This document shows, one piece after another, positions 3,194 to 60,406 of a stretch of DNA of 64,000 nucleotides. A program made the translations under genes and the position numbers. The notes below the pieces were generated by a model that was not told the origin of the DNA, searched no databases, and saw only the letters and a program-made list of their open reading frames with translations. The DNA comes from Candidatus Woesebacteria bacterium GW2011_GWB1_39_10 (GTDB lineage Bacteria > Patescibacteriota > Microgenomatia > UBA8517), in assembly GCA_000993205.1 (NCBI GenBank), contig LBVU01000002.1, positions 117,079-181,078 on the forward strand. Direction: 5' to 3'. Position 1 is the first letter of the stretch. Each line of letters begins with the position of its first letter.

Positions 3194-4375
3194 TCAGCTT
3201 CCGATTTTGAACTCAACCACATCTCCGTCGTGCATTATATAGTCCCGGCCCTCGCTCCTGACTTTGCCTTCCTCACGACAAACCTTCCACCCGCCTACGC
3301 CCGGCTTCGGCGAGGCAGGCCCTCCAATAAAGTCACTAAAATCACAAACATCAGCTTTAATAAATTTTTTAATAAAATCCGTATGAATTACACCGGCGGC
3401 TTCTTGGGCACTGATCCCAACCGGAATGGTCCAAGCCCTAACTTCCTTCTCCCCTGCCGTTAAAAATGTAATTAGGCCGAGGGTTTTAAAAGCTTTCTGG
3501 ATTAACCTCTCCAATCCCGATTTTTTAATTCCAAGATCCTCCATGTATATTTTTTGGTCATCGTTAGAAAGTTCCGCAAGCTCGCTTTCGGTTTTGGCGC
3601 AAATTGCCACAACTTGATCGGGATTTAACTTGAGCTTTTCGGCAAAAGAAATTTCCAGATCATGCGCGTTTGCTAAATCTTTCTCATCCACATTCATAAC
3701 GACAAGGACGGGCTTGATTGTCAAAAGTCCTAGTTCTTTGGCTATTTTCCTCTCCTCCTCTGATACATCGTTATATAACGATGTATCACTGGATAAAATT
3801 GTTTTTAATCTCTGAACTGCTTGCCAGCGATCTTTTAATTCTTTATCCGGGGTATTGCCTGGGTCTTTTTGTTTTTCTAAAGTTTGAAGATCGGCCAGCG
3901 CAAGTTCAGTATTTAAGACCTCAAAGTCGCTTACGGGATCTTTTACTCCCTGTTTTACAATATCAGGGTCGGTAAATGCGCGAAGAACAAAACAAATCGC
4001 ATTGGTTTCCCTAATATGGCTTAAAAATTTGTTTCCTAATCCCTCACCTTTGCTAGCCCCGGCGATGAGACCAGCTATATCTACGAATTCGACAGTTGCT
4101 GGAACAATGGGGATACTCGATACTCGATACTCGATACTGGGTGGTTTTTTGTCCCCGCTTAGTATCTTAGTATCTCTATATCCTAGTATCTCCGACTCGA
4201 CAACTTTTCTAAGTTGTTCGAGGCGGCCGTCCGGAACCGGTACAATCCCTATGTTTGGTTCAATCGTTGCGAACGGAAAGTTCGCCACGTACGCCTGCTG
4301 CTTTTTAAGCAAAGCGTTAAAAAGTGTGGACTTCCCAACGTTTGATAACCCTACAATTGCCACACTAAGACTCAT
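3194..4375 (-). CDS. ychF: ribosome-binding ATPase YchF (Obg-family GTPase) carrying an about 30-aa in-frame insertion
   Basis: MSLSVAIVGLSNVGKSTLFNAL G1 motif, C-terminal TGS-like region; insertion ESEILGYRDTKILSGDKKPPSIEYRVSSIPI encoded by repeat 4112-4190. Confidence 0.88.
   Translation of the reverse strand: MSLSVAIVGLSNVGKSTLFNALLKKQQAYVANFPFATIEPNIGIVPVPDGRLEQLRKVVESEILGYRDTKILSGDKKPPSIEYRVSSIPIVPATVEFVDIAGLIAGASKGEGLGNKFLSHIRETNAICFVLRAFTDPDIVKQGVKDPVSDFEVLNTELALADLQTLEKQKDPGNTPDKELKDRWQAVQRLKTILSSDTSLYNDVSEEERKIAKELGLLTIKPVLVVMNVDEKDLANAHDLEISFAEKLKLNPDQVVAICAKTESELAELSNDDQKIYMEDLGIKKSGLERLIQKAFKTLGLITFLTAGEKEVRAWTIPVGISAQEAAGVIHTDFIKKFIKADVCDFSDFIGGPASPKPGVGGWKVCREEGKVRSEGRDYIMHDGDVVEFKIGS
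4112..4190. repeat. Palindromic oligonucleotide repeat (GATACTC)x4 ... (AGTATCT)x3 inside ychF coding sequence, in frame
   Basis: gatactcgatactcgatactcgatact at 4112-4138 and inverse agtatcttagtatc..tagtatc at 4161-4190; same heptamer family at 18470-18498 and 57339-57367. Confidence 0.8.
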
Positions 4376-12233: not shown

Positions 12234-13490
12234 CTATAAAGCTAGTAGTATTGAAGCAATTATCACCAATATCCCCACTCCGCCCGCAACAACTGTCGGC
12301 CAATCCGTACCCGTAACAGGAATTGGCCTGGGTGTTGAACTGGTTCCCGCTGAGGAGCCACTTGCAGTCCCTGTCGCGGTTGGTGTCGCAGTGGCAGTGG
12401 CGGTTGCTGTGGGAGTAGCCGTTGCTGTGGGAGTAGCTGTCGCGGTTGGTGTCGCAGTGGCAGTGGCGGTTGCTGTGGGAGTAGCCGTTGCTGTGGGAGT
12501 AGAAAGACATGTAATCGAAAAATTATCAAATTTTGCAGTAGTTGCTGGAAGTGGGTTGCCAGTTACCGGCATAGCAGCAAGACTGATAATCAAATCATCA
12601 GTTAGCGTGGTTGTAAAAACAATTAATTCTGTGAAAGTTGACGAGTTGGATAGTTTGTATGAAGTTGTAATTTTACCAGACTTTCTTTCGACCTTAAAGC
12701 TGACACTGTCAGTTCCATTAATTACCACAGATTTGTTTTGGTTGCCTGGAACAAAATTAACAGCCACATTATGCGCTTCTTGTTTAATATTTCTTCCAAC
12801 TGTAACTATTTTTGAACCATCTGGACTCACCAAAATAAGTGTTCCAGTAACCGCTCCTGTCCCCGTCTTAGTAAGAGCAGGCGCATCAAAAGTAATCACA
12901 AAATCTCCTGTTAAATATTTGGTACTGGTTATTTTAGATCCAGTTTGTTGCCCAGAAGTTACATCGAGAACCAACTGACCAGAAGACACTTTTGCATCCC
13001 CGACCTTACTCCATTTAGCAGAATCAATTGTGCTATCAAAACTATCAGAAAAGTTGTCTGAACAAGTCATACTTCCAGTTGGCCCCGGAGTTGGGGTCGC
13101 GGCAGCGCACTCAGTCATATCTTTGGTCCAAGCTCCGTTAAGTGACGGGCAGCAATATTGACTCCCTCCACATGATCCTATCCTACCGACTCGGTTACAA
13201 AGCTGTTCGTCCGGAGATCCATCGGCCTGGGCAGGGGTACAATTTCTTAAATGCGAAGGCGCCCCCGTGACAGGACACTGCTCGGCAGTAGGACAAGTTG
13301 TAGTCTGGGCCTTCTCTTGAATATTCTGTCTTTGACGCACAAGAAGTACTCCAGCAACAACACTAAGGATTAAAAAAACAACAATTAAAAAAGTCACTAT
13401 GATCCCCTTTTTTCCAAAACTCTTCTTCTTTGTTGAGGTTACTATTTCAAACGGAGAGGTTGTTTGCTTGTTAAGATTTTGGTCAGGCAT
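12234..13490 (-). CDS. cell-surface protein: N-terminal signal anchor, Cys-rich module, jelly-roll (LamG/ConA-like) segment, Pro-Thr-Ala repeat linker, C-terminal IPVTG plus hydrophobic anchor
   Basis: N-terminal TM IIVTFLIVVFLILSVVAGVLLV; (PTATAT)n repeats; C-terminus PIPVTGTDWPTVVAGGVGILVIIASILLAL resembles an LPXTG-type sorting signal. Confidence 0.6.
   Translation of the reverse strand: MPDQNLNKQTTSPFEIVTSTKKKSFGKKGIIVTFLIVVFLILSVVAGVLLVRQRQNIQEKAQTTTCPTAEQCPVTGAPSHLRNCTPAQADGSPDEQLCNRVGRIGSCGGSQYCCPSLNGAWTKDMTECAAATPTPGPTGSMTCSDNFSDSFDSTIDSAKWSKVGDAKVSSGQLVLDVTSGQQTGSKITSTKYLTGDFVITFDAPALTKTGTGAVTGTLILVSPDGSKIVTVGRNIKQEAHNVAVNFVPGNQNKSVVINGTDSVSFKVERKSGKITTSYKLSNSSTFTELIVFTTTLTDDLIISLAAMPVTGNPLPATTAKFDNFSITCLSTPTATATPTATATATATPTATATPTATATPTATATATATPTATGTASGSSAGTSSTPRPIPVTGTDWPTVVAGGVGILVIIASILLAL
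12340..12510. repeat. DNA-level tandem repeat (about 66-bp unit x2 plus partials) encoding the PT/AT-rich linker
   Basis: gttgctgtgggagtagccgttgctgtgggagtagctgtcgcggttggtgtcgcagtggcagtggcg repeated. Confidence 0.7.
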
Positions 13491-13542: not shown

Positions 13543-14928
13543 CTATTCGATCGGAGAATCGTTGACACCAAATCCCGCGTCTTCAATCTGCTTTCTGATT
13601 TCGTCAGCCTCCTCAAACTTTTTCTCTTTTCTTAGTCTCTCCCTTTCAGTCATTAGAATTTTGATATTGTTTGGAATTTCGGATTTAGAATTTCGGATTT
13701 GGCCTAAATTTAGGCCTAATACTTCATCAAAACTAATTGCAAGATCGTATTTATCCTCCGATGGAATGTTACTTTTTAGCACCTCCCACAAAACAGCCAA
13801 TGCCTGAGAAACATTGATGTCATCCGAAAGAGCCATTACAAAATCGTTTCTAAAAGATTCAATTTTTGTTTCCTTGTCCTGAGAAAGAACCGTACGATTT
13901 GTTTGGGATTTAAGATTAGATATCTGAGACCTGAGATTATCAAGCGCATTCTGTGCCGATTTCAGAGATTTCCAAGAAAAGTTAATGCCTTTTTTGTAAT
14001 GAGATGTCAATATAAGATATCTCATGGCCAGTGAATCAAACTCTTTCGCTACAAGTTCCTGAGCAGTAACAAAATTTCCAAGACTTTTACTCATTTTTTC
14101 TCCACCCTTACCCATCAACCAACCATTATGGAGCCAATAATTTGCTGTTTGTTTGCCGAATGCCGCAAACCCCTGAGCAATCTCGTTAGTATGGTGAACC
14201 GCGATGTGTTCAATTCCACCGGTATGGATATCAAAATTATTACCTAAATATTTTGTGGACATTGCAGTACACTCTATATGCCAACCGGGATAACCTTCGC
14301 CCCAAGGACTCGGCCATTTCATAATGTGTTTTGGATTAATTACCCAAAGAAAAAAGTCCCAGGGAAGTTTTTTATCGGGGTCGACCTCTACGTCATTTCT
14401 GGTTTTAGTTTTTTCTAAATTTAGATTCCCAAATTTTGCATAATCAGGAAATTTAGACGTGTCGTAAATTAAACCTTTTTTAGTAGTATAGGAGAATCCA
14501 TTTTTTTCTATTGCCTGGTTTAGTTTTATTTGTTCCGAAATATTTTCAGTGGCCCGGCATAAAACATCCGGTGGACTTATTCCCAAAAGTTTCATACTGT
14601 CTTTAAATTGATTTATATATTTATCGGCAATTTCCCAAACAGTTAATCCTTCTCGTTTTGCGCCTTTTTCCATTTTATCTTCACCAAAATCTTCGTCCGA
14701 TGTCATATGTCCCACATCTGTAACGTTCATTACCCATTTAACATCATTTCCAGCAAAACGAAGGAATCGGACCAATATGTCCCATTGAACGTATGCATAC
14801 ATATGTCCTATATGCTGGTTCCAATATACAGTTGGACCACAGGAATAAATGCCTACCACACCGGGAACATTGGGTATAAACTTTTCTTTTTTGCGGGTTA
14901 GAGAATTTGTAAGGAAAATATCAGCCAC
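13543..14928 (-). CDS. cysS: cysteine--tRNA ligase
   Basis: HIGH-type motif GHMYAYVQWD region and KMSKSLGN motif. Confidence 0.92.
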   Translation of the reverse strand: MADIFLTNSLTRKKEKFIPNVPGVVGIYSCGPTVYWNQHIGHMYAYVQWDILVRFLRFAGNDVKWVMNVTDVGHMTSDEDFGEDKMEKGAKREGLTVWEIADKYINQFKDSMKLLGISPPDVLCRATENISEQIKLNQAIEKNGFSYTTKKGLIYDTSKFPDYAKFGNLNLEKTKTRNDVEVDPDKKLPWDFFLWVINPKHIMKWPSPWGEGYPGWHIECTAMSTKYLGNNFDIHTGGIEHIAVHHTNEIAQGFAAFGKQTANYWLHNGWLMGKGGEKMSKSLGNFVTAQELVAKEFDSLAMRYLILTSHYKKGINFSWKSLKSAQNALDNLRSQISNLKSQTNRTVLSQDKETKIESFRNDFVMALSDDINVSQALAVLWEVLKSNIPSEDKYDLAISFDEVLGLNLGQIRNSKSEIPNNIKILMTERERLRKEKKFEEADEIRKQIEDAGFGVNDSPIE

Positions 14929-14933
14929 GAGCT

Positions 14934-14965
14934 AATTGTAAATTGTAAATTGTAAATTGTAAATT
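14934..14965. repeat. Intergenic tandem octamer (AATTGTAA)x4
   Basis: aattgtaaattgtaaattgtaaattgtaaatt; reverse-complement copy caatttacaatttacaatttacaa at 39589-39612. Confidence 0.8.
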
Positions 14966-15512
14966 AGCCAGAAGGAGGAACTGGTTTTTCTACTCTTGTT
15001 TGCTGTTTTTCTGCCTCCTGTTTTTGTCCCCCCTGTTTTCTTCCCTTTTTGGCAGTACCAAACAACGAGCCACCACCTTGCGACTCAGCAAACTCATGTT
15101 GTTTCTTTTGGAATGCCACCGCTTCCATTTGGGCTTTGAGTACTTGTTTTTGTTCCATTGAAAGCTCCGAATAATCCTCCAGTGGAATTATTTCTCCATC
15201 AGTAATTCTGGCTTGAAGATCTTTAAAAATATCCTGTTTGTGAATATCCCCAAGCTCACGTTCCAAGGCTTCTATTAACCTGCTGCTTTTCATTTTATCT
15301 TGAATTTCCTGCTGGTGATGAATAAGTTTTGTTTGTTCTTCTTGGGTTTGGGGTTGTGATTGAAATTCTCCGGAAGATCGTTTTTCCTCTCCGGTTACCT
15401 GAGAACTTGCGGTTTTTAGAACCTCCAGTGGCTCCCGAGCCATTTGCTTGGCAATCTGTTGGGCCAGATTTTTTGCAGATTTAGTTGTGTCTTGGGCAAG
15501 TCCTGTTTTCAT
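14964..15512 (-). CDS. hypothetical Gln/Glu/Lys-rich protein (182 aa), probably coiled-coil or disordered; co-oriented immediately downstream of the 906-aa ORF
   Basis: ORF with 6-bp gap to upstream gene. Confidence 0.45.
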   Translation of the reverse strand: MKTGLAQDTTKSAKNLAQQIAKQMAREPLEVLKTASSQVTGEEKRSSGEFQSQPQTQEEQTKLIHHQQEIQDKMKSSRLIEALERELGDIHKQDIFKDLQARITDGEIIPLEDYSELSMEQKQVLKAQMEAVAFQKKQHEFAESQGGGSLFGTAKKGRKQGGQKQEAEKQQTRVEKPVPPSG

Positions 15513-18276: not shown

Positions 18277-18882
18277 CTATAGTTCGCGGCGGCCTTCTAA
18301 GGCTTGGGTCAGAGTTGTCTCATCAGCATATTCTAAATCTGCTCCCGTTGGAATCCCCATCCCCAGGCGCGTAATTTTTAATTTTAAATTATTAATTTTT
18401 AATTGCTTGCCGAGGTACATGGCGGTAGCATTCCCTTCCATTGTGGGGTTTGTAGCAATAATTAGTTCAGATACTGGATACTCGATACTAGATACTCGCT
18501 TCAGTAAATCGTCAATATATAGTTCATCCGGGCCTATATTTTCCAATGGATTAATCGCCCCATGAAGAACATGATAAACACCTTTAAAATGAGTTCTTTC
18601 GAACGCAAGAATATCTAGGGGTTGCTCTACTACCATCACTAACGATTTGTCCCGCATCGGGTCTGTGCAAATCGGACAAGGGTCGTCCTCACTAATATTT
18701 TTGCAAATTGAACAAAGTTTTGTGTTTTTCTTCAAATTTAGGATTGAATCGGCAAACTCATCGAGTTGGACTTGAGGAACATGCAAAAGATAATAAGTAA
18801 GGCGCTGAGCGCTTTTTGGCCCGATACCAGGAAGCTTGCTAAAAGATTCAATTAGAGCGGTAATGGGACGAGCTATTTTCAT
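18277..18882 (-). CDS. recR: recombination protein RecR
   Basis: C4 zinc finger CSICKNISEDDPCPIC and Toprim LIIATNPTMEGNATAMYL; dnaX-ybaB-recR context. Confidence 0.92.
   Translation of the reverse strand: MKIARPITALIESFSKLPGIGPKSAQRLTYYLLHVPQVQLDEFADSILNLKKNTKLCSICKNISEDDPCPICTDPMRDKSLVMVVEQPLDILAFERTHFKGVYHVLHGAINPLENIGPDELYIDDLLKRVSSIEYPVSELIIATNPTMEGNATAMYLGKQLKINNLKLKITRLGMGIPTGADLEYADETTLTQALEGRREL
18470..18498. repeat. GATACT(G/C/A) heptamer tandem x4 in frame inside recR
   Basis: gatactggatactcgatactagatactcg; encodes ...SSIEYPVSE... Confidence 0.75.
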
Positions 18883-18905: not shown

Positions 18906-18962
18906 CTTGTCATTCTGGAGTCCCGCCCTGCGGGACGATAGAATCTTATTAGTATAGAATCT
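18906..18962. mobile_element. MITE-like palindromic intergenic element, copy A (inverse orientation, core about 45 bp)
   Basis: cttgtcattctggagtcccgccctgcgggacgatagaatctta is the reverse complement of 41148-41192. Confidence 0.6.
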
Positions 18963-18966: not shown

Positions 18967-19263
18967 ATGATATCAAAAAGTTACTATATATACATCCTCA
19001 CTAATAAATATAACAAAGTCTTATATATTGGTGTCACAAACGACCTGATTAGAAGAGTTTATGAGCACAAAAAACATTTTATTGAAGGCTTCACTCAAAA
19101 ATATCATGTCGACAAATTGGTTTATTACGAGATGTTTGACGATCCTCTAACAGCAATTAAAAGAGAAAAAACTCTAAAAAATTTGTTAAGGAGAAAAAAG
19201 GAAGAACTAATAAACAAAATGAATCCTATGTGGAAAGACTTATATGAAGAAATCTTGAGTTGA
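18967..19263 (+). CDS. GIY-YIG domain nuclease-like protein (98 aa)
   Basis: YYIYILTNKYNKVLYIGVTNDLIRRVYEHK is a canonical GIY-YIG motif. Confidence 0.8.
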   Translation: MISKSYYIYILTNKYNKVLYIGVTNDLIRRVYEHKKHFIEGFTQKYHVDKLVYYEMFDDPLTAIKREKTLKNLLRRKKEELINKMNPMWKDLYEEILS

Positions 19264-19619: not shown

Positions 19620-21062
19620 TTAATTCCCAAATATCTCTTCTGCAACCTTGATTATATCCTTATCCTTTCCTTCAGTCAAAATTGGTTCAATTTTTGTCTC
19701 TTCAATTATTTTTTTAGCCGGAGGCTCAACCAATGTACAAACGACTCTCGTGGGCGACTGTAAAACTCTGGCAACTATATTCTCTAAAACCTGTCTGTGC
19801 TGTGTATCTTCCAAGCGTTCTTTATGAAATTTGTAATAAACTCCCAAGGTCAGAGTTTTACCATCATAAGCCACTGGGCGAGCAGCCCGAAGTAACGCTT
19901 CGATTGAGGCATTTATTGGTTTTATTGAAGACAAAATAGTATTCCAAATCTCTCCTTCAACCTCCATATTTTCGACAGCCGCCTCAACTGTTTCTACAAC
20001 TTCCTCGACAGAAGTCTTGTCTCCCATGTCCCCACTCTTAGTTATCAGTTCTTCGTTCTTAGTTTCACCTCCACACCATTTTATTACGGCGATCTCGAGT
20101 GGTAATTCTTCGATAGGCGAGTCGGGTACTTGTCGGTTGGCCTCAATCAGGAGTTCTGCCAAAACTATCAGTTCGCGATTTTCTGAAATATCCAAGATAA
20201 TATTTTTGTGTATTTCAATTAGAGCCTGCTTAAGTATTCCTTCGGCACCCGCACCTGCCTCAACTGCGTTCTTAATGTAATTAAGGGCATTATGCAGATT
20301 TTTCTTGTATAGAAAACCGACAAACTCATCTACCCCCTGCGCTTTGCCTTTTTCCAAAAAATTATTACCTTCAACACTAACCTGCTCTAAAAGCTTTACC
20401 GCGTCCCTAAACGATCCGTTGGCGGCGCCGGCGATATCTTCCAAAGTTTTTGGATCAAAATCGAGTTTTTCCCCTTTAATCACACGTGTTAAAGATTGCC
20501 GGATTTCTTCAGAGCTTGCTTTCCTGAACCTGATAAATGTTGTCCTCGACCGGATTGTATCAATAAGTTTTTCCGGATTTGTTGTTGCTAAAATAAAAAC
20601 TACGTGTTCCGGGGGTTCCTCAATGGTTTTGAGAAGTGCATTACTGGCCTCAGTTGTTAACATGTGAGCCTCATCAATAATATATACTTTTTTATTCGCT
20701 TTTACCGGGGAGAGTTTGACGACGTCTCTTAGTGTTCTTACATCATCAATTCCACGGTGAGAAGCGGCATCCATTTCAATTACATCCAAATTATTACCTT
20801 TTGTTACGGAAACACATTGTTCACACTTATCACAAGGTTCATAGCTTTTCACTTTTAGCTTTTCACTTTTAGCTATCTCCTCACAGTTTATTATCTTTGC
20901 CATTATTCTCGCCGCGGAAGTTTTGCCTGTCCCTTTTGGCCCGGCGAATAAGAAAGCATGAGGAATTTTGCCCGAACTTACGATCTTTTTTAATGACTCA
21001 CGAACCTCAGGCAAGTCAAGTTCATCTAAATTATTTGAACGGTATTTTAGATAGAGAGTCAT
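19620..21062 (-). CDS. dnaX: DNA polymerase III subunit gamma/tau
   Basis: AAA+ Walker A GPKGTGKTSAARI, zinc module CEEIA..CDKCEQC; contains in-frame KSEKLKVKS insertion. Confidence 0.92.
   Translation of the reverse strand: MTLYLKYRSNNLDELDLPEVRESLKKIVSSGKIPHAFLFAGPKGTGKTSAARIMAKIINCEEIAKSEKLKVKSYEPCDKCEQCVSVTKGNNLDVIEMDAASHRGIDDVRTLRDVVKLSPVKANKKVYIIDEAHMLTTEASNALLKTIEEPPEHVVFILATTNPEKLIDTIRSRTTFIRFRKASSEEIRQSLTRVIKGEKLDFDPKTLEDIAGAANGSFRDAVKLLEQVSVEGNNFLEKGKAQGVDEFVGFLYKKNLHNALNYIKNAVEAGAGAEGILKQALIEIHKNIILDISENRELIVLAELLIEANRQVPDSPIEELPLEIAVIKWCGGETKNEELITKSGDMGDKTSVEEVVETVEAAVENMEVEGEIWNTILSSIKPINASIEALLRAARPVAYDGKTLTLGVYYKFHKERLEDTQHRQVLENIVARVLQSPTRVVCTLVEPPAKKIIEETKIEPILTEGKDKDIIKVAEEIFGN
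20843..20873. repeat. Tandem repeat (CTTTTCACTTTTAG)x2 inside dnaX, reverse complement of the AAAGTGAAAAG family
   Basis: agcttttcacttttagcttttcacttttagc; encodes AKSEKLKVKS in dnaX. Confidence 0.75.
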
Positions 21063-37118: not shown

Positions 37119-37251
37119 CGAATTATTCTAACATTAAAAAGAAGTATGTCTAACTCACTATATTGATATGTACCAATATAGTGTCGGCAACAAATCTGAC
37201 TTAGAATTGTACCATTGTTACATAACAATGGTACAAAACGTCAATTTATTA

Positions 37252-38328: not shown

Positions 38329-38406
38329 CGCAACGCAGTATAACCAGTCATGCAAAATAATCAAATATCCAAATCTCAAATTACAAATAAATGATAAAAT
38401 GCATAA

Positions 38407-40524
38407 ATGATTAAATTACAAAAAATTATTTTCATTCTTTTTGCAATTCTTTTTTTCTTCGTTCCTTTAGTTTTGTGGCCGTATACATCTGAAGTTTTTG
38501 AATTTAACAAAATAGTCTTGGTATACATATTTACGGTTTTGATAGTTGCCGCATGGTTTGCAAGGACTGTCCTTGCACAAAAGATAATATTTCGTCGCAC
38601 AATATTAGATATACCACTTTTGGCATTTTTAGCTTCGCAATTTAGCTCAACCATTCTTTCGATAGACCCATCAACTTCTTGGTTGGGATATTATTCCAGG
38701 TTTAACGGCGGACTGCTTTCTACTATTTCCTATTCCCTACTTTATTGGGCCTTCGTTTCCAACTTAGACCGAAAACACGCCCTATATACTATATATTATA
38801 TACTTGCCTCCGCCTCGCTTGCTTCTGTTTACGGCGTATTAGAGCACTTCGGCATCGATAAAGCCCTCTGGGTTCAGGATGTTGCTTCCCGTGTATTTTC
38901 TACTCTTGGACAGCCGAATTGGCTGGCGGCGTTCCTCGTCGCGCTCCTGCCTATTACATGGGCTTTGGCGCTCACAAGATTCCAGATTCCACAACGAAGT
39001 TGGTTACGTAATTCCAGATTCTTGATACATTTCTTGCTTTCGATCCTATTTTTTTGGACATTAATATTTACCAAATCAAGATCGGGGCTTTTAGGATTTG
39101 GTGTAGCATTTCCGATTTTTTGGATGGGATATTTTTGGCTAAACCGAAAAAGTTTCTTGAAATGTCTTTCCCCTTTTGCCATTATTAGTTCTTCACTATT
39201 AATTATTAGTTTAATTTCCGGTACTCAATATACTCCCAACCTATATAACTTCTTAATTAAAACCAATAAAGGCTTGCCGGCCGAAACCCTGGTGAAGGCT
39301 GGGCCGGCTCTTGAAGTCGGTGGAACCGAGTCCGGTACTATCCGGAAAATCGTATGGCGCGGGGCTATCGAAATATGGAAACAGTACCCGATTTTTGGAA
39401 CAGGCGTCGAAACTTTTGCTTTTTCTTACTACCAATTTAGGCCCGTCGAACACAATTTAGTCTCCGAATGGGATTTTATTTACAACAAAGCACACAATGA
39501 GTACCTTAATCTCGCAGCCAATACAGGTAGTTTTGGATTAATTGCCTATTTAGTTCTTGTTAGTTTCTCGATATATCAAATGATTAAGAATTTACAATTT
39601 ACAATTTACAATTTACAAACAAATTCTAAGTTTGAAAATTTCAAAAATGAAAATTTATTGAAAATTGGTAATTGGAAATTGGTAATTCTCGGCCTCTTGG
39701 CCGGTTATACAAGTCTTCTCGTAACCAATTTTTTTGGTTTTTCGGTCGTTCCAACCCAACTCCAGTTATTTTTATTTCCGGCGATAGCGATTATTTTAGC
39801 TAAAAGTGAAGAGGTAAAAGTGAAAAGTGAAACGATAAATACCAATCAAAAAGTTCTAATTCTTATAACGCTCTTAGTTCTTAGTTATTCGCTTTTCGTT
39901 ATCGGCAAATATTGGTATTCCGATACTCTTTATGCCAAAGGTAAGGGATATAACAGCATTCAACGACCGGATGCCGCCATCAACTATTTAGTCCGGGCTA
40001 CTAATATGAAACCCAACCAACCACTATTTCACAGTGAGTTGGCAAACTCATACGCGGCCATGGCGCTTGCTCTTTATAACCAGAAAGACATAAATGGATC
40101 TAAAAAGTATGTCGATTTGGCAATTAGCGAATCAGACAAATCTGTTACCCTTTCTGCCTCTATGCTGAATTTAAAAAGATCGCGTTTTGGAGTATTCGTA
40201 GTGCTTTCAACTATAAATCCGAACCATCTTCTTATTGCCCAAGAAACTTTAATTGATGCTATAACATTTGCTCCAACCGATGCAAAACTTTATTACAATT
40301 TAGGTCTGACCTACGCAAGAACCGGCCAACCGGACCGCGCAATTGAAATTCTAATTAAAACAATCGGTTTAAAAGCCAATTACAGAGACGCAAGGCTTGC
40401 ATATGCATATCTCTTAATTGACAAGAACAAGAACACTGAGGCAAAAGAACAACTCGGATATATTCTTAAATCTATCGACCCCAACGATTCACTTGCCAAA
40501 CAGGCGCTTGAGAGCATCAAATAA
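38407..40524 (+). CDS. O-antigen ligase (Wzy_C) family membrane protein with C-terminal TPR repeats
   Basis: RKIVWRGAIEIWKQYPIFGTGVETF matches the R..W....P.GxGxG.F ligase motif; about 10 TM helices; TPR-like C-terminus; contains three in-frame oligo repeats. Confidence 0.75.
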   Translation: MIKLQKIIFILFAILFFFVPLVLWPYTSEVFEFNKIVLVYIFTVLIVAAWFARTVLAQKIIFRRTILDIPLLAFLASQFSSTILSIDPSTSWLGYYSRFNGGLLSTISYSLLYWAFVSNLDRKHALYTIYYILASASLASVYGVLEHFGIDKALWVQDVASRVFSTLGQPNWLAAFLVALLPITWALALTRFQIPQRSWLRNSRFLIHFLLSILFFWTLIFTKSRSGLLGFGVAFPIFWMGYFWLNRKSFLKCLSPFAIISSSLLIISLISGTQYTPNLYNFLIKTNKGLPAETLVKAGPALEVGGTESGTIRKIVWRGAIEIWKQYPIFGTGVETFAFSYYQFRPVEHNLVSEWDFIYNKAHNEYLNLAANTGSFGLIAYLVLVSFSIYQMIKNLQFTIYNLQTNSKFENFKNENLLKIGNWKLVILGLLAGYTSLLVTNFFGFSVVPTQLQLFLFPAIAIILAKSEEVKVKSETINTNQKVLILITLLVLSYSLFVIGKYWYSDTLYAKGKGYNSIQRPDAAINYLVRATNMKPNQPLFHSELANSYAAMALALYNQKDINGSKKYVDLAISESDKSVTLSASMLNLKRSRFGVFVVLSTINPNHLLIAQETLIDAITFAPTDAKLYYNLGLTYARTGQPDRAIEILIKTIGLKANYRDARLAYAYLLIDKNKNTEAKEQLGYILKSIDPNDSLAKQALESIK
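39589..39687. repeat. In-frame tandem repeats (CAATTTACAA)x3 and (GAAATTGGTAATTG)x2 inside the O-antigen ligase-like gene
   Basis: aatttacaatttacaatttacaaa 39589-39612 and gaaaattggtaattggaaattggtaattc 39654-39687. Confidence 0.75.
39798..39832. repeat. AAAGTGAAAAG-family tandem repeat in frame (encodes EEVKVKSET)
   Basis: agctaaaagtgaagaggtaaaagtgaaaagtgaaa. Confidence 0.75.
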
Positions 40525-40567
40525 CTTGAAATATCAGATTAATCCGATTCTCTGGTATAATTCGTAA

Positions 40568-41101
40568 ATGATCAGAAAGATAATTCAATCGGGTAACCCG
40601 ATTTTAAGACGAAAATCCAAAAACATTGCCAAGGTGGACAAAAAGGTTCAGGAGATAATCAGGGATCTGAAGGATACATTAAAGACCCAAAAAGAACCGG
40701 AAGGTGTGGGCCTGGCAGCTCCCCAAATCGGCAAGAATCTGAATATCTTCATTGCTAGCTACAAAAATTTTCAACGAGTGGTAATAAACCCTGAAATTTT
40801 GAAAATTTCAGGAGCTAAAAGTGAAAAGCTAAAAGTGAAAAGTAAGAAGGAAATACTCGAAGGCTGCTTGTCACTTCCTTATTACTACGGACCTCTAAAA
40901 CGAGCGGATAAAATCACCGTTAAATATCTAAACGAAAAAGGAGAAGAAATTACGGAAGATTTAGAAGGTTTTGATGCTCAAATAATTCTTCACGAAATTG
41001 ATCACCTTGAGGGAAAATTGTTCATCGACAGACTTTTTGAAGAAAAGAAACCCTTGTATAAAGTTGATGGAGATGAATGGGAAGAGGTGGAGCTTTCGTA
41101 G
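40568..41101 (+). CDS. def: peptide deformylase
   Basis: EGCLSLP and HEIDHLEG metal-binding motifs; def-fmt pair; carries in-frame KSEKLKVKSKK insertion. Confidence 0.92.
   Translation: MIRKIIQSGNPILRRKSKNIAKVDKKVQEIIRDLKDTLKTQKEPEGVGLAAPQIGKNLNIFIASYKNFQRVVINPEILKISGAKSEKLKVKSKKEILEGCLSLPYYYGPLKRADKITVKYLNEKGEEITEDLEGFDAQIILHEIDHLEGKLFIDRLFEEKKPLYKVDGDEWEEVELS
40813..40842. repeat. AAAGTGAAAAG-family tandem repeat in frame inside def
   Basis: agctaaaagtgaaaagctaaaagtgaaaag. Confidence 0.8.
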
Positions 41102-41107: not shown

Positions 41108-41192
41108 GACATCCTGAGGCGGCAGCCGAAGGATCCTGTCAATATTAAATAAGATTCTATCGTCCCGCGTTGCGGGACTCCAGAATGACAAG
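41108..41192. mobile_element. MITE-like palindromic intergenic element, copy C (85 bp, between def and fmt)
   Basis: gacatcctgagg...gaaggatcct...aataagattctatcg-tcccgcgttgcggga-ctccagaatgaca; imperfect TIRs GTCATCCTGAG / GTCATTCTGGAG. Confidence 0.65.
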
Positions 41193-41200: not shown

Positions 41201-42046
41201 ATGAAAATAGTATTTTTTGGCACACCGGATTATGTTCTTCCTGTTCTTACCACCCTTCACAAGAAGTTTGTATCTGGACCGGGAAAGTCCCCAATTGTTG
41301 CTGTGGTTACCCAAAGTCCCAAACCAACCGGCAGAAAACAATATCTAACGTATTCTCCGGTAGACAAATGGGCTCATGAACGCAAAGTTTTTACACATTA
41401 TTCGGCCGAGGAACTAATTGATGCCAATCTTGATACGGAGGTCGGGATTCTGGCCTCCTACGGACAGATTATTTCTAAAGAGGTAATAGATTTATTTCCC
41501 AAAGGAATACTTGTAATCCATCCGTCTCTTTTGCCAGCATATAGAGGCGCTTCCCCCATTCAGGCGGCAATTACAAACGGTGACACTCAAACTGGTGTCA
41601 CGATATTTAAGATGGATGAAAAGATTGACCACGGCCCAATCGTCTCTCAGTTTAAGGAAAATATTCACCTGAATGATACATTTGAGACTCTCCGGATACG
41701 ACTTTTTGAAAGGTCTGCAGAAGTTTTAGCAGAACTTATCGAACCTTATTTAAAGGGTAAAATTAGTTTAAAAACACAAGATGAAGGCGGTGCCACCTAC
41801 ACCAAAATCGTCAAGAGAGAAGATGGATTTGTTGATCTTAAAAAAGACAGTCCCGAGAAAATCGAACGATTGTCCCGTGCAATGTATCCCTGGCCCGGCA
41901 TTTGGACCTATTTGCCTAACGAAAAGCGCCTCAAAATCCTTAAATGCCACCTCGAAGATGGTAAGTTGATTCTTGATGAAGTCCAGTTGGAAGGCAAAAA
42001 TCCTGTGAGTTGGAAGCAGTTCACAGAGGCATACCCAGAGCCGTAG
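41201..42046 (+). CDS. fmt: methionyl-tRNA formyltransferase
   Basis: MKIVFFGTPDYVLPVL and HPSLLPAYRGASPIQ formyltransferase motifs. Confidence 0.88.
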   Translation: MKIVFFGTPDYVLPVLTTLHKKFVSGPGKSPIVAVVTQSPKPTGRKQYLTYSPVDKWAHERKVFTHYSAEELIDANLDTEVGILASYGQIISKEVIDLFPKGILVIHPSLLPAYRGASPIQAAITNGDTQTGVTIFKMDEKIDHGPIVSQFKENIHLNDTFETLRIRLFERSAEVLAELIEPYLKGKISLKTQDEGGATYTKIVKREDGFVDLKKDSPEKIERLSRAMYPWPGIWTYLPNEKRLKILKCHLEDGKLILDEVQLEGKNPVSWKQFTEAYPEP

Positions 42047-43586: not shown

Positions 43587-43671
43587 TGCCAAGAGCAGGA
43601 TTCGAACCTACGTAGCCCTTCCGGGCGCCTGATTTACAGTCAAGTGCGTTTGACCACTCCGCCATCTTGGC
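43587..43671 (-). tRNA. tRNA-Tyr (anticodon GTA), class II with long variable arm
   Basis: Manual fold: acceptor GCCAAGA/TCTTGGC, anticodon loop CTGTAAA, variable hairpin GCCC-GGAA-GGGC, T-loop GGTTCGAATCC. Confidence 0.8.
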
Positions 43672-43673
43672 AT

Positions 43674-44306
43674 CTAATTCAAAAGGTCAGTAGCAATTAT
43701 ATCAATATCTAAAAGGATTTGCCTTAACAATCTGGTATCGTAATATCTTACATGGACAAGTCCGTACGGCATTTTCCCCACTTTTTCGGTTTTAAAATCT
43801 CTACGTACATATGGCTTAGAAAATTGTTTTTGAGGAATATTCAATTTCTCCGACCAGTATTCAATTAATTTGCCACTATTCTGATTGGAAAAACAGTAAA
43901 TATATACTCTCAATCGCTTTTCATTCACAAAGTAAATTTTTCTAAGCATTCTAGTAAATATTAAGAGCATTTTCTCGTTACTGTTAGCAAAATCGACAGC
44001 CGCTTTGTTTGCTTTTGACCCTTCGGCCCAGTATAGCGACAGCCCACTAATAAATAATTTTTGTAAGTTTATATCTAACTTATCTATTCTCTTAAAAGAC
44101 AGAGGGCTTCTCTCAAATTGAATTTTAATAGTTTCTGACGGTTTTCTTCTTTTGATTTTATTTCGCCTCATAAAACTAATAACTCTCCAAACAGAAATAT
44201 TATATTTCTGGGCAATTTCATTGGCACTCAAGCCGAACTTATTGTAAAGCTTCAATACATCAATCTTGTCAAGCATACCAGATCTATGGTATTCTCCACT
44301 TGCCAT
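43674..44306 (-). CDS. HTH DNA-binding protein, possibly LAGLIDADG-like homing endonuclease
   Basis: N-terminal HTH GLSANEIAQKYNISVWRVISFM; segment LFISGLSLYWAEGSK weakly resembles a LAGLIDADG motif; located between tRNA genes. Confidence 0.4.
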   Translation of the reverse strand: MASGEYHRSGMLDKIDVLKLYNKFGLSANEIAQKYNISVWRVISFMRRNKIKRRKPSETIKIQFERSPLSFKRIDKLDINLQKLFISGLSLYWAEGSKANKAAVDFANSNEKMLLIFTRMLRKIYFVNEKRLRVYIYCFSNQNSGKLIEYWSEKLNIPQKQFSKPYVRRDFKTEKVGKMPYGLVHVRYYDTRLLRQILLDIDIIATDLLN

Positions 44307-44402
44307 ACTGTCAACTATTCAAATTTGATATAATTCACACTACATGCAGGGATAAACAAGTTTCGTCTAACGACGTAAACAAAGTTTGTCCCAGCATTGC
44401 AT

Positions 44403-44474
44403 GCCGGGATAGCTCAACGGTGGAGCAACGCTTTTGTAAAGCGAAGGTTGAAGGTTCAAATCCTTTTCCCGGCT
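44403..44474 (+). tRNA. tRNA-Thr (anticodon TGT)
   Basis: Manual fold: acceptor GCCGGGA/TCCCGGC, D-arm GCTC..GAGC, anticodon loop TTTGTAA, T-loop GGTTCAAATCC. Confidence 0.7.
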
Positions 44475-44574
44475 CTTGGCAAACTTTCATTCCACCCACT
44501 CCGGCTGGGCAAAGTTTTGCATATAAACCGACTTCCATAACCACGTACACATTTTTTGGTATAATTGAGTCCGC

Positions 44575-44646
44575 GCCTGGGTAGCTCAGTGGTAGAGCAC
44601 CAACTTGGTAAGTTGGGGGTCGTGAGTTCAATCCTCACCTCAGGCT
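44575..44646 (+). tRNA. tRNA-Thr (anticodon GGT)
   Basis: Manual fold: acceptor GCCTGGG/CTCAGGC, D-arm GCTCAGTGGTAGAGC, anticodon stem CCAAC/GTTGG loop TTGGTAA, T-loop GAGTTCAATCCTCAC. Confidence 0.75.
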
Positions 44647-44666
44647 CAAAATGAAGTCTCAAAAAC

Positions 44667-45092
44667 TTACTTTTCCTCAATGGATCTCAAAACAACATAT
44701 TTGAGATCTCCTTCGTCGTCGTTCACCCTAACATAATCAACTCCGTGTATAACCGATTTCGCTCCCCATTCGTCCTTACCCCTCGGAGTTAGATTACCAT
44801 TTTGAAAAGTATGTTCAATTTGCATCAAAAGCTCTTTTGATTCTCCCGGTTTCCAAAGTGCTATATCAGCGTCAATTTCACCCTTCAAAAAAACCTGCTT
44901 CAAACTCTCGGCTATATTTTCAACCCTAGAACTATCTTTAACCGAGCCAACACCGCCGCTGGGCAATGTCACAGCTAAGGCCTCCGGGACTCTTAACCCC
45001 TCCTCCACAAAGACTTCATCTTTAACGGACACTTTTTTAAGCCATTCCGGGGTTGCCGTGTCAGACATATATTTATTGTATAACATGAACAT
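44667..45092 (-). CDS. hypothetical protein (141 aa)
   Basis: ORF only. Confidence 0.45.
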   Translation of the reverse strand: MFMLYNKYMSDTATPEWLKKVSVKDEVFVEEGLRVPEALAVTLPSGGVGSVKDSSRVENIAESLKQVFLKGEIDADIALWKPGESKELLMQIEHTFQNGNLTPRGKDEWGAKSVIHGVDYVRVNDDEGDLKYVVLRSIEEK

Positions 45093-45126
45093 TGCGGTAT
45101 TGCAAATTTAAGTATAAAATAGGCAC

Positions 45127-45312
45127 ATGGCAAAAAAGGGGGCGCGAGAACTTGTGAGCATGATTTGTTCCGTCTGTAAAAATCAAAATTACATTACAAA
45201 CAGGAATAAGGTAAATATGGATGTTAAAGGCAAAGGCAAGCTCCAAATCAAGAAATATTGTAAATTTTGCCGCAAATCTCAACTTCACAAAGAAAGCTCC
45301 AAACTAAAGTAA
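45127..45312 (+). CDS. rpmG: 50S ribosomal protein L33
   Basis: CSVCKNQNY...CKFCRK zinc-ribbon pattern and size typical of L33. Confidence 0.85.
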   Translation: MAKKGARELVSMICSVCKNQNYITNRNKVNMDVKGKGKLQIKKYCKFCRKSQLHKESSKLK

Positions 45313-45963
45313 GATTTTTTCTCCCAACTTCCGAGCCTCATTTTCAAAAAACCTAATCATCTTCTGCCTATCAAGTTTGATTTTCATTCTGGGAAAATCT
45401 TCCAATTCATTCACCTTGAGTAAGTTCTTGACCAACTCAACCTCAGAAATCTTAATATCAAACTTTATTCTGTGAAGATCCAACGCGCGTTTGAGCCTCC
45501 ATTTTTTACGCTTCGCGATTTCATACAAATCAATAAAATCGCGCGCTTTTTTACGAAGTAAAATTGTTTCAACCTTATTTGCATAAATATCTTTTATTGA
45601 ATCTATTTTGACTCCTCTGAAATAACTTGGTTTCCCGAGCTGTGGAAATGAATAATAGACAAAATCGATTATCAGCTCTTCTCCGTTATTCCACTTAAGC
45701 TTAAACCCGTTCACATTAGTTTTTAATCTTTCGATTGTTGTATAACCCAATTCCTTTTTGGAGCTAAAGATGAAGTTTGCAACATCGACAAAGGTGAATT
45801 CTTCCGTGGAAAAAAAATCCAAATCTTCGGAATATCGGTGATTTAAATAATAACCAGCAAGAGCGGTTCCACCGGTTAAATAGAAATTGCTAAATTTTTT
45901 GTTTTGACCAACCAATCCAAGTAGTTGCTTCTGTCTGGTTGTAAACCAGGTTCTTTTTTCCAT
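45304..45963 (-). CDS. AbiEii/AbiGii-family nucleotidyltransferase (type IV toxin-antitoxin / abortive infection toxin-like)
   Basis: FYLTGGTALAGYYLNHRYSEDLDFFS matches the DUF1814/AbiEii G-G...S-E-D-[IL]-D-F signature. Confidence 0.75.
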   Translation of the reverse strand: MEKRTWFTTRQKQLLGLVGQNKKFSNFYLTGGTALAGYYLNHRYSEDLDFFSTEEFTFVDVANFIFSSKKELGYTTIERLKTNVNGFKLKWNNGEELIIDFVYYSFPQLGKPSYFRGVKIDSIKDIYANKVETILLRKKARDFIDLYEIAKRKKWRLKRALDLHRIKFDIKISEVELVKNLLKVNELEDFPRMKIKLDRQKMIRFFENEARKLGEKILL

Positions 45964-46166
45964 TTTCTTCCCCATACCAGGAATTCTATCGCCTTTTTGG
46001 TATCAATATCCAGGTCTTCCGAAATCTTACCCCAATTTTTGATAATCTCTGCCCTTTTTACCCTTTCCCCACCGTAAGTTAAAGCCTGCTTTATCCTCCA
46101 AAGTTTGTATTCTTTAGGATTGTTTTTCCTAAATAATTTTTCGTCCGTGTTCCAATTTACGATCAT
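45876..46166 (-). CDS. hypothetical small protein upstream of and overlapping AbiEii-like gene (possible cognate partner)
   Basis: 97-aa ORF starting at MIVNW after removing the part antisense to tRNA-Trp; overlaps AbiEii ORF by about 88 nt in another frame. Confidence 0.35.
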   Translation of the reverse strand: MIVNWNTDEKLFRKNNPKEYKLWRIKQALTYGGERVKRAEIIKNWGKISEDLDIDTKKAIEFLVWGRKWKKEPGLQPDRSNYLDWLVKTKNLAISI

Positions 46167-46199
46167 ATGCCATGATATAATATCACCTAGAAGATAGAT

Positions 46200-46273
46200 A
46201 GGCTCGTGATGAAATGGTATCATAGCGGTCTCCAAAACCGCTCTTTCAGGTTCGAATCCTGACGGGCCTGCCA
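46200..46273 (+). tRNA. tRNA-Trp (anticodon CCA) with encoded 3' CCA
   Basis: Manual fold: acceptor AGGCTCG/CGGGCCT, D-arm ATGA..TCAT, anticodon stem GCGGT/ACCGC loop CTCCAAA, T-arm TCAGGTTCGAATCCTGA, discriminator G then CCA. Confidence 0.8.
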
Positions 46274-46344
46274 ACAAAGTTCGACTGTGTCCTTCTGAAG
46301 CTTTAGCGGAAGAGGATTCTATCCACCCCTGCAAGATAGCCTGC

Positions 46345-49717: not shown

Positions 49718-49753
49718 ATACATATAGTAAAAGGTAAAAAGTAAAAGGTAAAG

Positions 49754-57021: not shown

Positions 57022-57051
57022 AGCTTTTCACTTTTCGCTCTTCACTTTTAG
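57022..57051. repeat. AAAGTGAAAAG-family repeat (reverse complement) encoding the C-terminal KLKVKSEK of RNase HII and forming an imperfect hairpin with 57000-57021
   Basis: agcttttcacttttcgctcttcacttttag opposite agctaaaaagtaagaac. Confidence 0.65.
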
Positions 57052-57720
57052 TTTGTTGAGCCAAGTGGCGACGAAGGCTTTCCTGTGCAATTTAGTCGCT
57101 CCATATTTTTTGATGGCATTTTGGTGTTCTTTTGTCCCATACCCTTTGTTTTTACCCCATTTGTAAACTCTAAATTTTGGATTTTTGGAGATTTTTACCA
57201 TTAGTTTATCCCGATAGACTTTGGCGACAATTGAGGCTGCTGCGATTGAAATCGATTTCGTATCCCCTTTAATAATGGCCTTTTGGTTTTTTCTTCTTAG
57301 ACTCCTTACGTAAGGTATGAAGAAGGCGTCAATGAGTAGATACTCGATACTGGATACTTTGATACTCACACTTTTGATCGCTTTACGGAAAGCTATTTCT
57401 GAGGCTTTTTTTATCCCAAACCGATTTATTTGTGCCACACTTGCCTGTCCGATTCCAATCGCAAGTGCATTTTGCCGTATCCATTTATCTGCAACTTTCC
57501 TCTGTCTTGGAGTAAGTTGTTTTGAGTCGTTGATAATTATTTTGCGATTACCTTTCAAGACCGTGTCTTTAAAGGTGGTTATAGTATTTCTGTCAAAGAC
57601 AACACATCCTGCCACAATTGCGCCGGCAAAACAGCCTCTACCTACCTCATCCATACCGGCAACAACCTTAAAACCTTTATTCCACAGCTTCTTTTCAAAG
57701 GAGAAATCCGGAAGTGTCAT
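57028..57720 (-). CDS. rnhB: ribonuclease HII
   Basis: VAGMDEVGRGCFAGAIVAGCVVF catalytic N-terminus; contains in-frame SSIEYLLID insertion and KVKSEK tail. Confidence 0.88.
   Translation of the reverse strand: MTLPDFSFEKKLWNKGFKVVAGMDEVGRGCFAGAIVAGCVVFDRNTITTFKDTVLKGNRKIIINDSKQLTPRQRKVADKWIRQNALAIGIGQASVAQINRFGIKKASEIAFRKAIKSVSIKVSSIEYLLIDAFFIPYVRSLRRKNQKAIIKGDTKSISIAAASIVAKVYRDKLMVKISKNPKFRVYKWGKNKGYGTKEHQNAIKKYGATKLHRKAFVATWLNKLKVKSEK
57339..57367. repeat. GATACT(C/G/T) heptamer tandem x4 in frame inside rnhB
   Basis: gatactcgatactggatactttgatactc. Confidence 0.75.
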
Positions 57721-59500: not shown

Positions 59501-59563
59501 GTTTTACGAAGGATCCTATTAATATAACAAAAGATTCTATCGCTAACGCTCCAGAATGACATC
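59491..59563. mobile_element. MITE-like palindromic intergenic element, copy D (overlaps last three codons of rplK, ends 7 bp before rplA)
   Basis: gtcatcctgag-ttttac-gaaggatcct-attaatataacaaaagattctatcg-ctaacg-ctccagaatgacatc; colinear with copy C. Confidence 0.65.
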
Positions 59564-59569
59564 AAAAAA

Positions 59570-60406
59570 ATGGGAAAAACTAAAACAGCATTTGTAAGTG
59601 AGACCCCGACTTCCGTCGGGGCAGGCAAAAACGAAAAGAAAAGTCACCTTGCTCACAAAAGTGAGGAGGGTAAAGTTCATGTCGCCGGACTTAAGGGTGG
59701 TCAAAGAGTTAAAGTGGTTGAAGCCGCCCCAACCGAGGAAGCACCTATTTTTGAGGAAGGAAAAGCGGGTTCTCTTGAAGTCTCGAAAAGTGGTGAGCGA
59801 AGTCGAACCAGAGTCGAACGGGTCAGGTCCGTAAAGTATAAAGACGCTAAAAAGAAAATCGAGCCGGGTAAAACTTATGCAATAGAAGCGGCAATTAAAC
59901 TAGTTAAAGAGGCGTCATATTCCAAATTTGACGGAACAATGGAAGCTCACCTAGTACTCAAAAAGGCCGGAATTTCGGCCCAAGTCACCCTCCCCCATGC
60001 CGCGGGACGCGAGAAAAAAGTAGAAATTGCGTCAGATGAAACAATAGAAAAATTAAAAGCAGGAAAAATCGATTTTGATATTTTGATTGCAACCCCGGCA
60101 ATGATGCCGAAACTTGTTCCCTTTGCCAGACTTTTGGGACCTAAGGGACTTATGCCAAACCCCAAAAACGGAACGCTTGTAACGGACCCAAAAAAAGCCA
60201 ACAGTTTCTCTGCAGGAACAGTCACCATCAAAACCGAAAAAGAGGCTCCACTTATTCATACAGTTGTCGGGAAAAATAGCCAGAAAGATGAAGAAATTGC
60301 AGACAACCTTAAAGCAATTTTCAAAGCTTTCGGAGGAGACAAACAAATTGTCAGAGCTTTTATTAAATCAACAATGAGCCCAAGTGTTAAAGTGGAGGTT
60401 AAGTAA
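59570..60406 (+). CDS. rplA: 50S ribosomal protein L1 with about 80-aa N-terminal extension
   Basis: Core from KTYAIEAAIKLVKE...VTLPHAAGREKKV matches L1; preceding Lys/Glu-rich extension. Confidence 0.88.
   Translation: MGKTKTAFVSETPTSVGAGKNEKKSHLAHKSEEGKVHVAGLKGGQRVKVVEAAPTEEAPIFEEGKAGSLEVSKSGERSRTRVERVRSVKYKDAKKKIEPGKTYAIEAAIKLVKEASYSKFDGTMEAHLVLKKAGISAQVTLPHAAGREKKVEIASDETIEKLKAGKIDFDILIATPAMMPKLVPFARLLGPKGLMPNPKNGTLVTDPKKANSFSAGTVTIKTEKEAPLIHTVVGKNSQKDEEIADNLKAIFKAFGGDKQIVRAFIKSTMSPSVKVEVK

Follow-up and report, generated by a model that had tools for sequence, protein, structure and literature searches.

The two heptamer arrays and their neighbours

The window, that is, the whole stretch of 64,000 nucleotides analysed here, belongs to Candidatus Woesebacteria bacterium GW2011_GWB1_39_10, which we take to be an ultra-small groundwater bacterium, the source of the GW2011 genomes being presumably the Rifle aquifer. 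The cysteinyl-tRNA synthetase gene cysS (13543-14928, minus strand, Pfam tRNA-synt_1e) is preceded on the same strand by an open reading frame (ORF) of 182 amino acids (14964-15512), for which no Pfam family was found and whose C-terminus, ...PVPPSG*, is kept in relatives. Between them lies a perfect tandem array of the heptamer AATTGTA, (TTTACAA)n on the sense strand (14934-14965, minus strand, AATTGTAAATTGTAAATTGTAAATTGTAAATT), to which TRF assigns period 7, 4.6 copies, 32 nt and 100% matches. The array fills the 35-nt spacer from the stop codon of the ORF to 5 nt before the cysS start, and the TAA stop of the ORF overlaps its first bases. A second array, (AATTTAC)x4.3 (39589-39618, plus strand, AATTTACAATTTACAATTTACAATTTACAA, period 7 and 100% matches in TRF), is in frame within a membrane-protein gene having O-antigen-ligase (Wzy_C, PF04932) and TPR families (38407-40524, plus strand), whose product has a counterpart of 100% identity in Microgenomates group bacterium GW2011_GWC1_39_7b. 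Reverse-complementing AATTGTA and rotating the result gives the unit AATTTAC, the array at 39589-39618 is the exact reverse complement of that at 14934-14965, and on the sense strand of the local genes both read AAUUUAC. The 14-mer AATTTACAATTTAC is restricted to these two sites in the 64-kb window.

An earlier note on this DNA had described a tandem array at 14934-14965, which TRF shows to be perfect, and its reverse complement in frame in the O-antigen-ligase/TPR gene, which also holds, the translation in ORF 38407-40524 being KNLQFTIYNLQT; the further array that it saw beyond 39618 is found by TRF at 39657-39687. Its repeat unit, an octamer AATTGTAA or a decamer CAATTTACAA, has to be replaced by the heptamer AATTGTA or AATTTAC, and the coding array ends at 39618, not at 39612. 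It had also placed the first array in the downstream spacer of cysS; since cysS is on the minus strand, the array is in fact upstream of cysS and downstream of ORF 14964-15512. The idea that the intergenic copy forms a hairpin with neighbouring sequence failed, the spacer RNA with its flanks folding at -12.3 kcal/mol (z = +0.47 against shuffles). Rfam at the gathering threshold gives nothing at either array and, in the whole window, four tRNAs only; these tRNA genes lie within 43587-46270, at 43587-43671 on the minus strand and at 44403-44474, 44575-44646 and 46200-46270 on the plus strand.

Period-7 arrays in the window and in other genomes

Exact period-7 runs of at least 2.5 copies number seven in the window against 0.15 in shuffles, and no exact run of at least 2.5 copies was found there at periods 8 to 18. 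A mismatch-tolerant scan gave six arrays of period 7 and seven of period 14 against none in shuffles, and about 24 period-7/14 arrays are present in the window as compared with about 0 in shuffles. The genome-wide k-mer periodicity scan proposed in the earlier note, carried out on 64 kb of the genome, thus yields an excess of period 7/14 over shuffles. One and the same scan detected 15 period-7 arrays in the window and 3-6 per 22 kb in three syntenic relatives; the controls, E. coli K-12 and the AT-rich phage T4 (34% GC), gave 0 over 50 kb each; in the window and in the relatives period 7 exceeds both the other periods and chance. The arrays are short (21-34 nt) and AT-rich. About 15 of the 24 are inside ORFs whose identity is confirmed by Pfam, namely ychF, pyrG, cysS, recR (two arrays), dnaX, an M50 protease gene, the O-antigen-ligase gene, def and rnhB, unlike the cyanobacterial STRR and the long simple sequence repeats (LSSR), which are described as mainly intergenic.

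Several units recur on the sense strand of different genes. A 14-mer array, AGCTAAAAGTGAAA x2.4, is present in dnaX (20842-20874, minus strand) and the same unit in the peptide deformylase gene def (40813-40842, plus strand); these unrelated genes share an identical 30 nt and its reading frame, so both encode AKSEKLKVKS, in the case of def in a variable loop just before the EGCLS motif. Related copies are found at 39801-39832, a further array in the O-antigen-ligase gene, and at 57027-57049. The unit GAGTATC forms arrays in ychF (4112-4138, minus strand), where a VSSIEY-type peptide is encoded, and in recR (18470-18498) and rnhB (57339-57358), which are also read as VSSIEY, and the unit AACTAAT occurs at 2325 and 27620. 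In cysS itself, a period-14 array (13674-13700) lies in a linker of conserved length, and the L135 genome has a VSSIEY/GAGTATC array in the same linker. That the arrays are insertions was considered and rejected: the O-antigen-ligase loop is rich in indels, but at the def loop and the cysS linker an array takes the place of other sequence, the length being roughly kept. A coincidental pair without further copies, the outcome by which the earlier note would have given up its claim, is not what is seen, because recurrence in the window is seen for at least three further families of units and AATTTAC occurs in many other genomes: the unit has two loci in the window and at least 120 stretches elsewhere, a same-unit dispersal that is characteristic of LSSR/STRR.

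Such recurrence could be explained by a mobile or templated mini-element, whose repeat cassettes are spread by transposition, gene conversion or templated repair. This would account for the identical 30-nt arrays in dnaX and def, which are hard to attribute to independent local origin and which keep a copying mechanism alive as a minor rival, and also for the occurrence of GAGTATC in three genes as well as in the L135 cysS linker, and for AATTTAC at two sites; the recurrence of units within the genome looks to be above a rough chance estimate. We nevertheless consider a mini-element very improbable, as the arrays have no terminal inverted repeats, target-site duplications, shared flanks or hairpins such as mark MITE, REP or SDR-like elements, each of the two focal arrays has a plausible local precursor at the orthologous site of relatives, and the vocabulary of units is very diverse. 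A separate dispersed element of about 40 nt was observed in the window, in which a GTCCCGC...GCGGGAC stem is followed by TCCAGAATGACAAG. It is located at 18906-18926 (minus strand) and 41172-41192 (plus strand), with a related sequence near 59540-59570, just upstream of recR (18277-18882), the divergent ORF 18967-19263 and fmt (41201-42046); a 21-mer of it is identical at two sites, where 0 would be expected.

When the 21-mer (AATTTAC)x3 was searched in species-representative genomes, at least 120 stretches matched. The matches listed include about 24 Patescibacteria loci, many from Bacteroidales, Paludibacteraceae and Prevotella, cyanobacteria (Hormoscilla, ESFC-1 and Richelia), and also Ignavibacteria, Acidobacteria and uncultured Gammaproteobacteria. 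In 818 kb of the listed stretches there are 297 period-7 arrays against 8-38 for other periods, so genomes with the AATTTAC unit share a general heptamer excess. Likewise, in 435 kb of related Microgenomates loci the arrays of period 7 number 86 and have 57 distinct units, while the periods 5, 6 and 8-12 reach only 4-18. Among the matches listed, the AATTTAC unit in other taxa is intergenic in 77 cases and within ORFs in 27, and it is never antisense in a long ORF. AATTTAC arrays of all taxa, again among the matches listed, show no orientation bias with respect to the nearest gene start (22 sense, 25 antisense), so the unit is not a general promoter module; a universal promoter function of the unit in bacteria is thereby ruled out, and the promoter role discussed below is claimed only for this lineage and this locus. 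A difference in length between coding and intergenic arrays, which might be expected from steps of 21 nt, was also looked for, and the two length distributions are similar and uninformative. Two further observations concern individual genomes. In some of Parcubacteria type (loci L003, L070 and L106), the reverse complement (AAATTGTAAATT) stands no more than about 30 nt beyond an AATTTAC array, a potential hairpin unlike the situation in the window, and in another Microgenomates genome (L056, 6666-6695) an AATTTAC array is translated in a prepilin-like leader peptide, M-KFTIYNLQ...GFTLIELLVV.

The spacer upstream of cysS as a candidate promoter

The 78 genes of the window have a characteristic start region. 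In 11 of them TA.AAT begins at -13/-12 from the start codon, against about 0.3 per background position, and a good -10 box is present in 20 or more, in many cases with a weak -35 and a TG extension, the box ending 6-7 nt before the start codon; a Shine-Dalgarno-like motif is found in only about 10. Examples are the TAnAAT boxes upstream of genes at 40552-40567, 38391-38406, 37119-37134 and 46290-46305, and the start regions of def (TGgTATAAT-TCGTAA-ATG) and of the O-antigen-ligase gene (TAAAAT-GCATAA-ATG). A -10 box at a distance of 6-7 nt with no Shine-Dalgarno motif would be the signature of leaderless transcription, and the genome appears to be largely leaderless.

The array in front of cysS has the same layout. 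On the minus strand the promoter scan reads TTTACA-17 nt-TACAAT-6 nt (TAGCTC)-GTG, with 10/12 matches, both hexamers being near consensus and their distance within the usual 16-18 nt. The -35-like hexamer TTTACA (14958-14963, minus strand) is within the array and is present at the same place in the ortholog L140; the -10 hexamer TACAAT (14935-14940, minus strand) is part of the last unit of the array and occupies the commonest -10 position among the genes of the window. The GTG (14926-14928, minus strand) is the first possible start of cysS because an in-frame TAG stands two codons upstream, and the 6 nt between -10 and GTG, without a Shine-Dalgarno motif, agree with the leaderless layout of the other genes. 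Leaderless translation from a GTG at the 5' end is supported in mycobacteria (PMC4633059). The candidate has no extended TG, and its -35 match is among the best in the window. TTTACAA resembles TTGACA at offset 0 and TATAAT at offset 2, and TTTACA falls in register because 3 x 7 + 2 = 23, which is the offset between -35 and -10. From what can be read directly from the DNA, namely the repeats, their excess and positions, the promoter geometry and its conservation in orthologs, we infer promoter activity and a transcription start at the cysS GTG. On this ground we hold it to be rather probable that the array at 14934-14965 is a sigma-70-type promoter of a leaderless cysS mRNA, that both focal arrays come from a lineage-wide class of heptamer repeats and arose locally and independently, and that the coding copy is a loop filler.

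Of 80 orthologous cysS loci retrieved, the 52 distinct ones were counted. The pattern TAnn[AT]T stands 5-8 nt before the start in 29 of the 52, at 6 nt in 16 of them, the commonest -10 hexamer is TACAAT (10 loci), and the extended TG accompanies the -10-like hexamer in 15 of the 29; most orthologs have an extended -10 without a clear -35. Promoter elements are thus conserved in 29/52 loci, and L140 has both hexamers: its spacer reads TAA-TTTACA-ATTTAGCGATATCAATT-TACAAT-TGAAGCT-GTG, with 17 non-repetitive nucleotides between them. The L138 locus has the proximal unit only, TTTACAATTAGGTCGTGGCTGAT, and its fuller stretch, gcTTTACAATTAGGTCGTGGCTGAT, is nearly identical to the 3' end of the window's array. 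L138 and L140 would represent intermediate states, and hexamers kept while the spacer diverged, as in L140, would be what a promoter predicts.

The same geometry is shown by independent TTTAC-core arrays. The cysS loci L144 and L136 have TTTACC-17-TATAAT-6-ATG inside (CTTTTAC)n, TTTACAA arrays of 32 nt in Levybacteria (L058) and Daviesbacteria (L046) stop 6 nt short of an ATG, and in the window a TTTACCT/TTTACTT array upstream of ddl (49726-49752, minus strand) gives TTTACC-17 nt-TACTAT-6 nt-ATG. The ddl array is identical in all 27 positions in the Woesebacteria relative L001 (L001 22081-22107). Array and flanks together are nearly identical in the window and L001, though the O-antigen-ligase ortholog is only about 71% identical, and for this divergent promoter region strong constraint or recent exchange is indicated.

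It must be considered, however, that AT-rich heptamer arrays are in general likely to contain promoter-like hexamers. The coding copy, which in its own register ends in TACAAA without the final T, makes together with its flanks a weaker promoter match that still scores 9/12, and the ddl array scores only 8/12. Both arrays might be neutral slippage debris, functionless by-products of heptamer-prone replication or repair, with only the pre-existing TACAAT mattering to cysS and TTTACA being incidental. Most arrays of the window are coding and their units have no resemblance to promoters, 57 distinct units occur among 86 arrays in relatives, most cysS orthologs manage on an extended -10 without a clear -35, and orientation bias across taxa is absent among the matches listed, all of which would suit such debris. 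That TTTACA is incidental is harder to reconcile with the window's cysS itself, which has, in place of the TG extension seen in 15/29 orthologs with a -10, one of the window's best -35 matches; with L140, which keeps an exact TTTACA at 17 nt while the spacer has diverged; and with the recurrence of TTTAC-core arrays at the -35 of other leaderless promoters. We regard neutral debris as unlikely, while giving it some weight.

The promoter reading is also weakened by the upstream ORF, which ends on the same strand only 35 nt before cysS, no terminator lying between, so that cotranscription of cysS is possible. If it occurs, the unstructured, AU-rich (AAUUUAC)n before the GTG could be an intercistronic translation signal, that is, a landing pad for the ribosome or S1, or a site for a post-transcriptional regulator; for the heptamers of Nostoc a comparable idea has been put forward. 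No terminator-like site separates the two genes, cysS has no Shine-Dalgarno motif, the spacer RNA is unstructured, and the position of the array just before the start fits a TAACTGA-type site; heptamers in 2-6 copies a few nucleotides from start codons have been described (PMC4679880), also in Nostoc, and in other taxa arrays abut start codons in both orientations, among the matches listed. What orthologs conserve, however, is a -10 hexamer, in many cases TG-extended, at a fixed 5-8 nt from the start, which is a signature of DNA and promoters and not of a repeat or an AU tract, and the same layout is found at the first genes of divergent units, for example def and the O-antigen-ligase gene. 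A translation signal in place of a promoter is in our judgement improbable.

Perfect repeats are prone to slippage, and a phase-variable switch would be a further reading, in which the gain or loss of 7 nt toggles the cysS promoter or the reading frame of the membrane protein: the loss of one unit (from 32 to 25 nt) would remove the -35, and a 7-nt change in the coding copy would frameshift a surface-polysaccharide gene, a typical target of phase variation. This is extremely improbable, as cysS is essential and four other assemblies of this population, whose CysRS is identical, show no difference in the array (100% identity over 5.6-7.4 kb). No variation in copy number of the array was seen among these four assemblies, a comparison of low power, the assemblies being otherwise 100% identical apart from a nearby 66-nt repeat that does vary. 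The latter, 2.4 kb from the array, is a perfect tandem repeat of 2.0 copies (12371-12502) in ORF 12234-13490 (minus strand) and encodes the Thr/Pro/Ala-rich tail of a 418-amino acid protein without a Pfam match; three other assemblies of the population have a single copy (396 amino acids), all else being 100% identical, and it is a genuine copy-number polymorphism.

Origin of the arrays and relation to known repeats

The coding copy at 39589-39618 encodes NLQFTIYNLQ, part of a hypervariable loop flanked by two predicted membrane helices, and the following array (39657-39687, plus strand; ATTGAAA/ATTGGTA/ATTGGAA/ATTGGTA, in TRF either period 7 x4.4 at 83% or period 14 x2.2 at 94%) encodes LKIGNWKLVI in the same loop. 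An alignment of 24 homologs, in which two hydrophobic segments flank the loop, shows the array-bearing part to be rich in indels and absent from some homologs. In the homolog L206 (60% identity) the conserved IYQM(I/A)K is directly followed, at exactly this site, by a decayed array, AATTTTC AATTTTC AACTGAC AATTCTC; in L001 and L207 other heptamer-periodic units run across the loop; and the NWKLV motif, conserved in homologs, is encoded by repeated AATTGGN, a periodicity that the window extends upstream. It follows that heptamer turnover at the loop is of long standing, and the perfect array looks like a recent homogenisation of a local seed.

The coding copy is possible in this orientation only, because the complement GTAAATT gives TAA stops in every frame. 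The orientation that both focal arrays share relative to transcription would thus be due to stop codons for the coding copy and to promoter direction for the intergenic one. It follows transcription and not replication, because the GC skew has one sign across the window; a replication-strand cause was rejected on this basis.

Both arrays would belong to a lineage-wide class of short heptanucleotide tandem repeats resembling cyanobacterial STRR and LSSR, generated presumably by local slipped-strand or template-switch amplification of AT-rich seeds and persisting wherever the sequence is weakly constrained. The ancestral element at cysS was probably a single -10 unit, TTTACAAT, whose upstream amplification in steps of 7 nt would put the -35-like TTTACA in register, and the coding copy would be translated as filler of a hypervariable membrane-protein loop. 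The two focal copies are probably convergent products of one mutational process, local and independent, and not copies of a mobile element, because they have orthologous precursors (the promoter of L138 and L140 and the loop of L206), unrelated flanks and neither inverted repeats nor hairpins. As to the earlier note's view of a repeat family in both non-coding and coding contexts, one unit does occupy both, in opposite orientation on the plus strand; a family in the sense of copies of one element does not agree with the orthologous sites of relatives, which suggest local growth from pre-existing seeds. Slippage itself meets a difficulty, as plain 7-nt slippage in a coding sequence causes a frameshift, and the several arrays that replace sequence at unchanged length are not readily explained by it.

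Heptanucleotide repeats are the most abundant long simple repeats and polymerase slippage has been suggested for them, according to the summaries of Mrazek et al. (2007) in PMC4679880 and PMC4692102; the latter also deals with the GGGAATC repeats of Xanthomonas. Repeats in coding regions tend to have unit lengths in multiples of 3, and repeats such as these are mainly intergenic (PMC4679880). Both focal arrays consist of at least three 7-nt units head to tail, as in the LSSR/STRR class of Calothrix and Nostoc, and share with that class the small number of copies, the many units per genome, the dominance of period 7, a sporadic lineage-specific distribution for which slippage has been proposed and, in cyanobacteria, even the AATTTAC unit. 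They differ in that the host belongs to the Microgenomates (CPR), most arrays of the window are translated in conserved housekeeping genes, and the arrays are short, AT-rich and often length-conserving replacements. In Nostoc PCC 7120 three or four contiguous heptamers lie 30-100 nt from the start codons or -10 boxes of many genes, and a heptamer deletion changed reporter expression, suggesting a regulatory role (bioRxiv 10.1101/2022.06.06.494920); the Nostoc repeats, however, modulate separate promoters and NtcA/LexA binding, whereas the repeat of the window itself spells -35 and -10.

TAACTGA direct repeats are known from marine Beggiatoaceae, Cyanobacteria and Bacteroidetes, and a binding site for a post-transcriptional regulator on RNA has been proposed for them (MacGregor 2015, PMC4679880). 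Similarities are the heptamer in 2-6 copies, the ends a few nucleotides from start codons without canonical ribosome-binding sites, a coding orientation limited by stop codons, and a scatter over Gammaproteobacteria, Cyanobacteria and Bacteroidetes. In contrast to them, the array of the window matches -35/-10 at leaderless geometry, its orthologs conserve a DNA -10 box, and the unit is different and one of many in the genome, while Beggiatoaceae have one dominant unit. Repeat tracts upstream of surface-protein genes of Moraxella catarrhalis are an example of phase-variable promoters (PMC4679880), which resemble the cysS array as perfect tandem repeats in the core promoter region; here, however, the gene is essential, no copy-number polymorphism is seen, and added units leave the -35/-10 spacing unchanged. 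Repeats in frame within proteins are another point of comparison, and in the ORFs of Borgs the tandem repeats have units in multiples of 3 (PMC9879509). In such repeats, as in the window, in-frame copies are tolerated and add or replace surface-loop or disordered segments, a likeness that extends to the Rickettsia elements. Rickettsia palindromic elements are palindromic mobile elements of about 100-150 nt, present in frame within genes. Unlike these and the Borg repeats, the unit of the window is 7 nt, so that the reading frame changes from one unit to the next and a 7-residue repeat takes three units.

In the literature searched, no report of heptamer repeats in CPR bacteria was found. The class of heptanucleotide repeats as such is known, and what sets this case apart is the host lineage, the abundance of arrays translated within housekeeping genes, the length-conserving replacement and a repeat that spells a complete leaderless promoter. 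Cyanobacteria and a small number of other lineages have for decades been known to carry such repeats, and the window offers a testable case of a repeat spelling the promoter of an essential gene in a largely leaderless CPR genome. For annotators, low-complexity inserts in CPR proteins and short intergenic spacers may be of heptamer-array origin. The routine translation of 7-nt repeats in housekeeping enzymes is unexpected, because the unit is not a multiple of three, and suggests how protein loops of CPR bacteria diverge quickly. A bolder proposal, which we regard as speculative and rather doubtful, is that a heptamer-generating process, dedicated or strongly biased, is at work in Microgenomates and related CPR bacteria as a general sequence writer, which overwrites loops of housekeeping proteins with frame and length kept and would build a leaderless promoter in one step from a -10-bearing heptamer. 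If this were true, the heptamer arrays would supply these reduced genomes with both regulatory and protein novelty and would be more than slippage debris.
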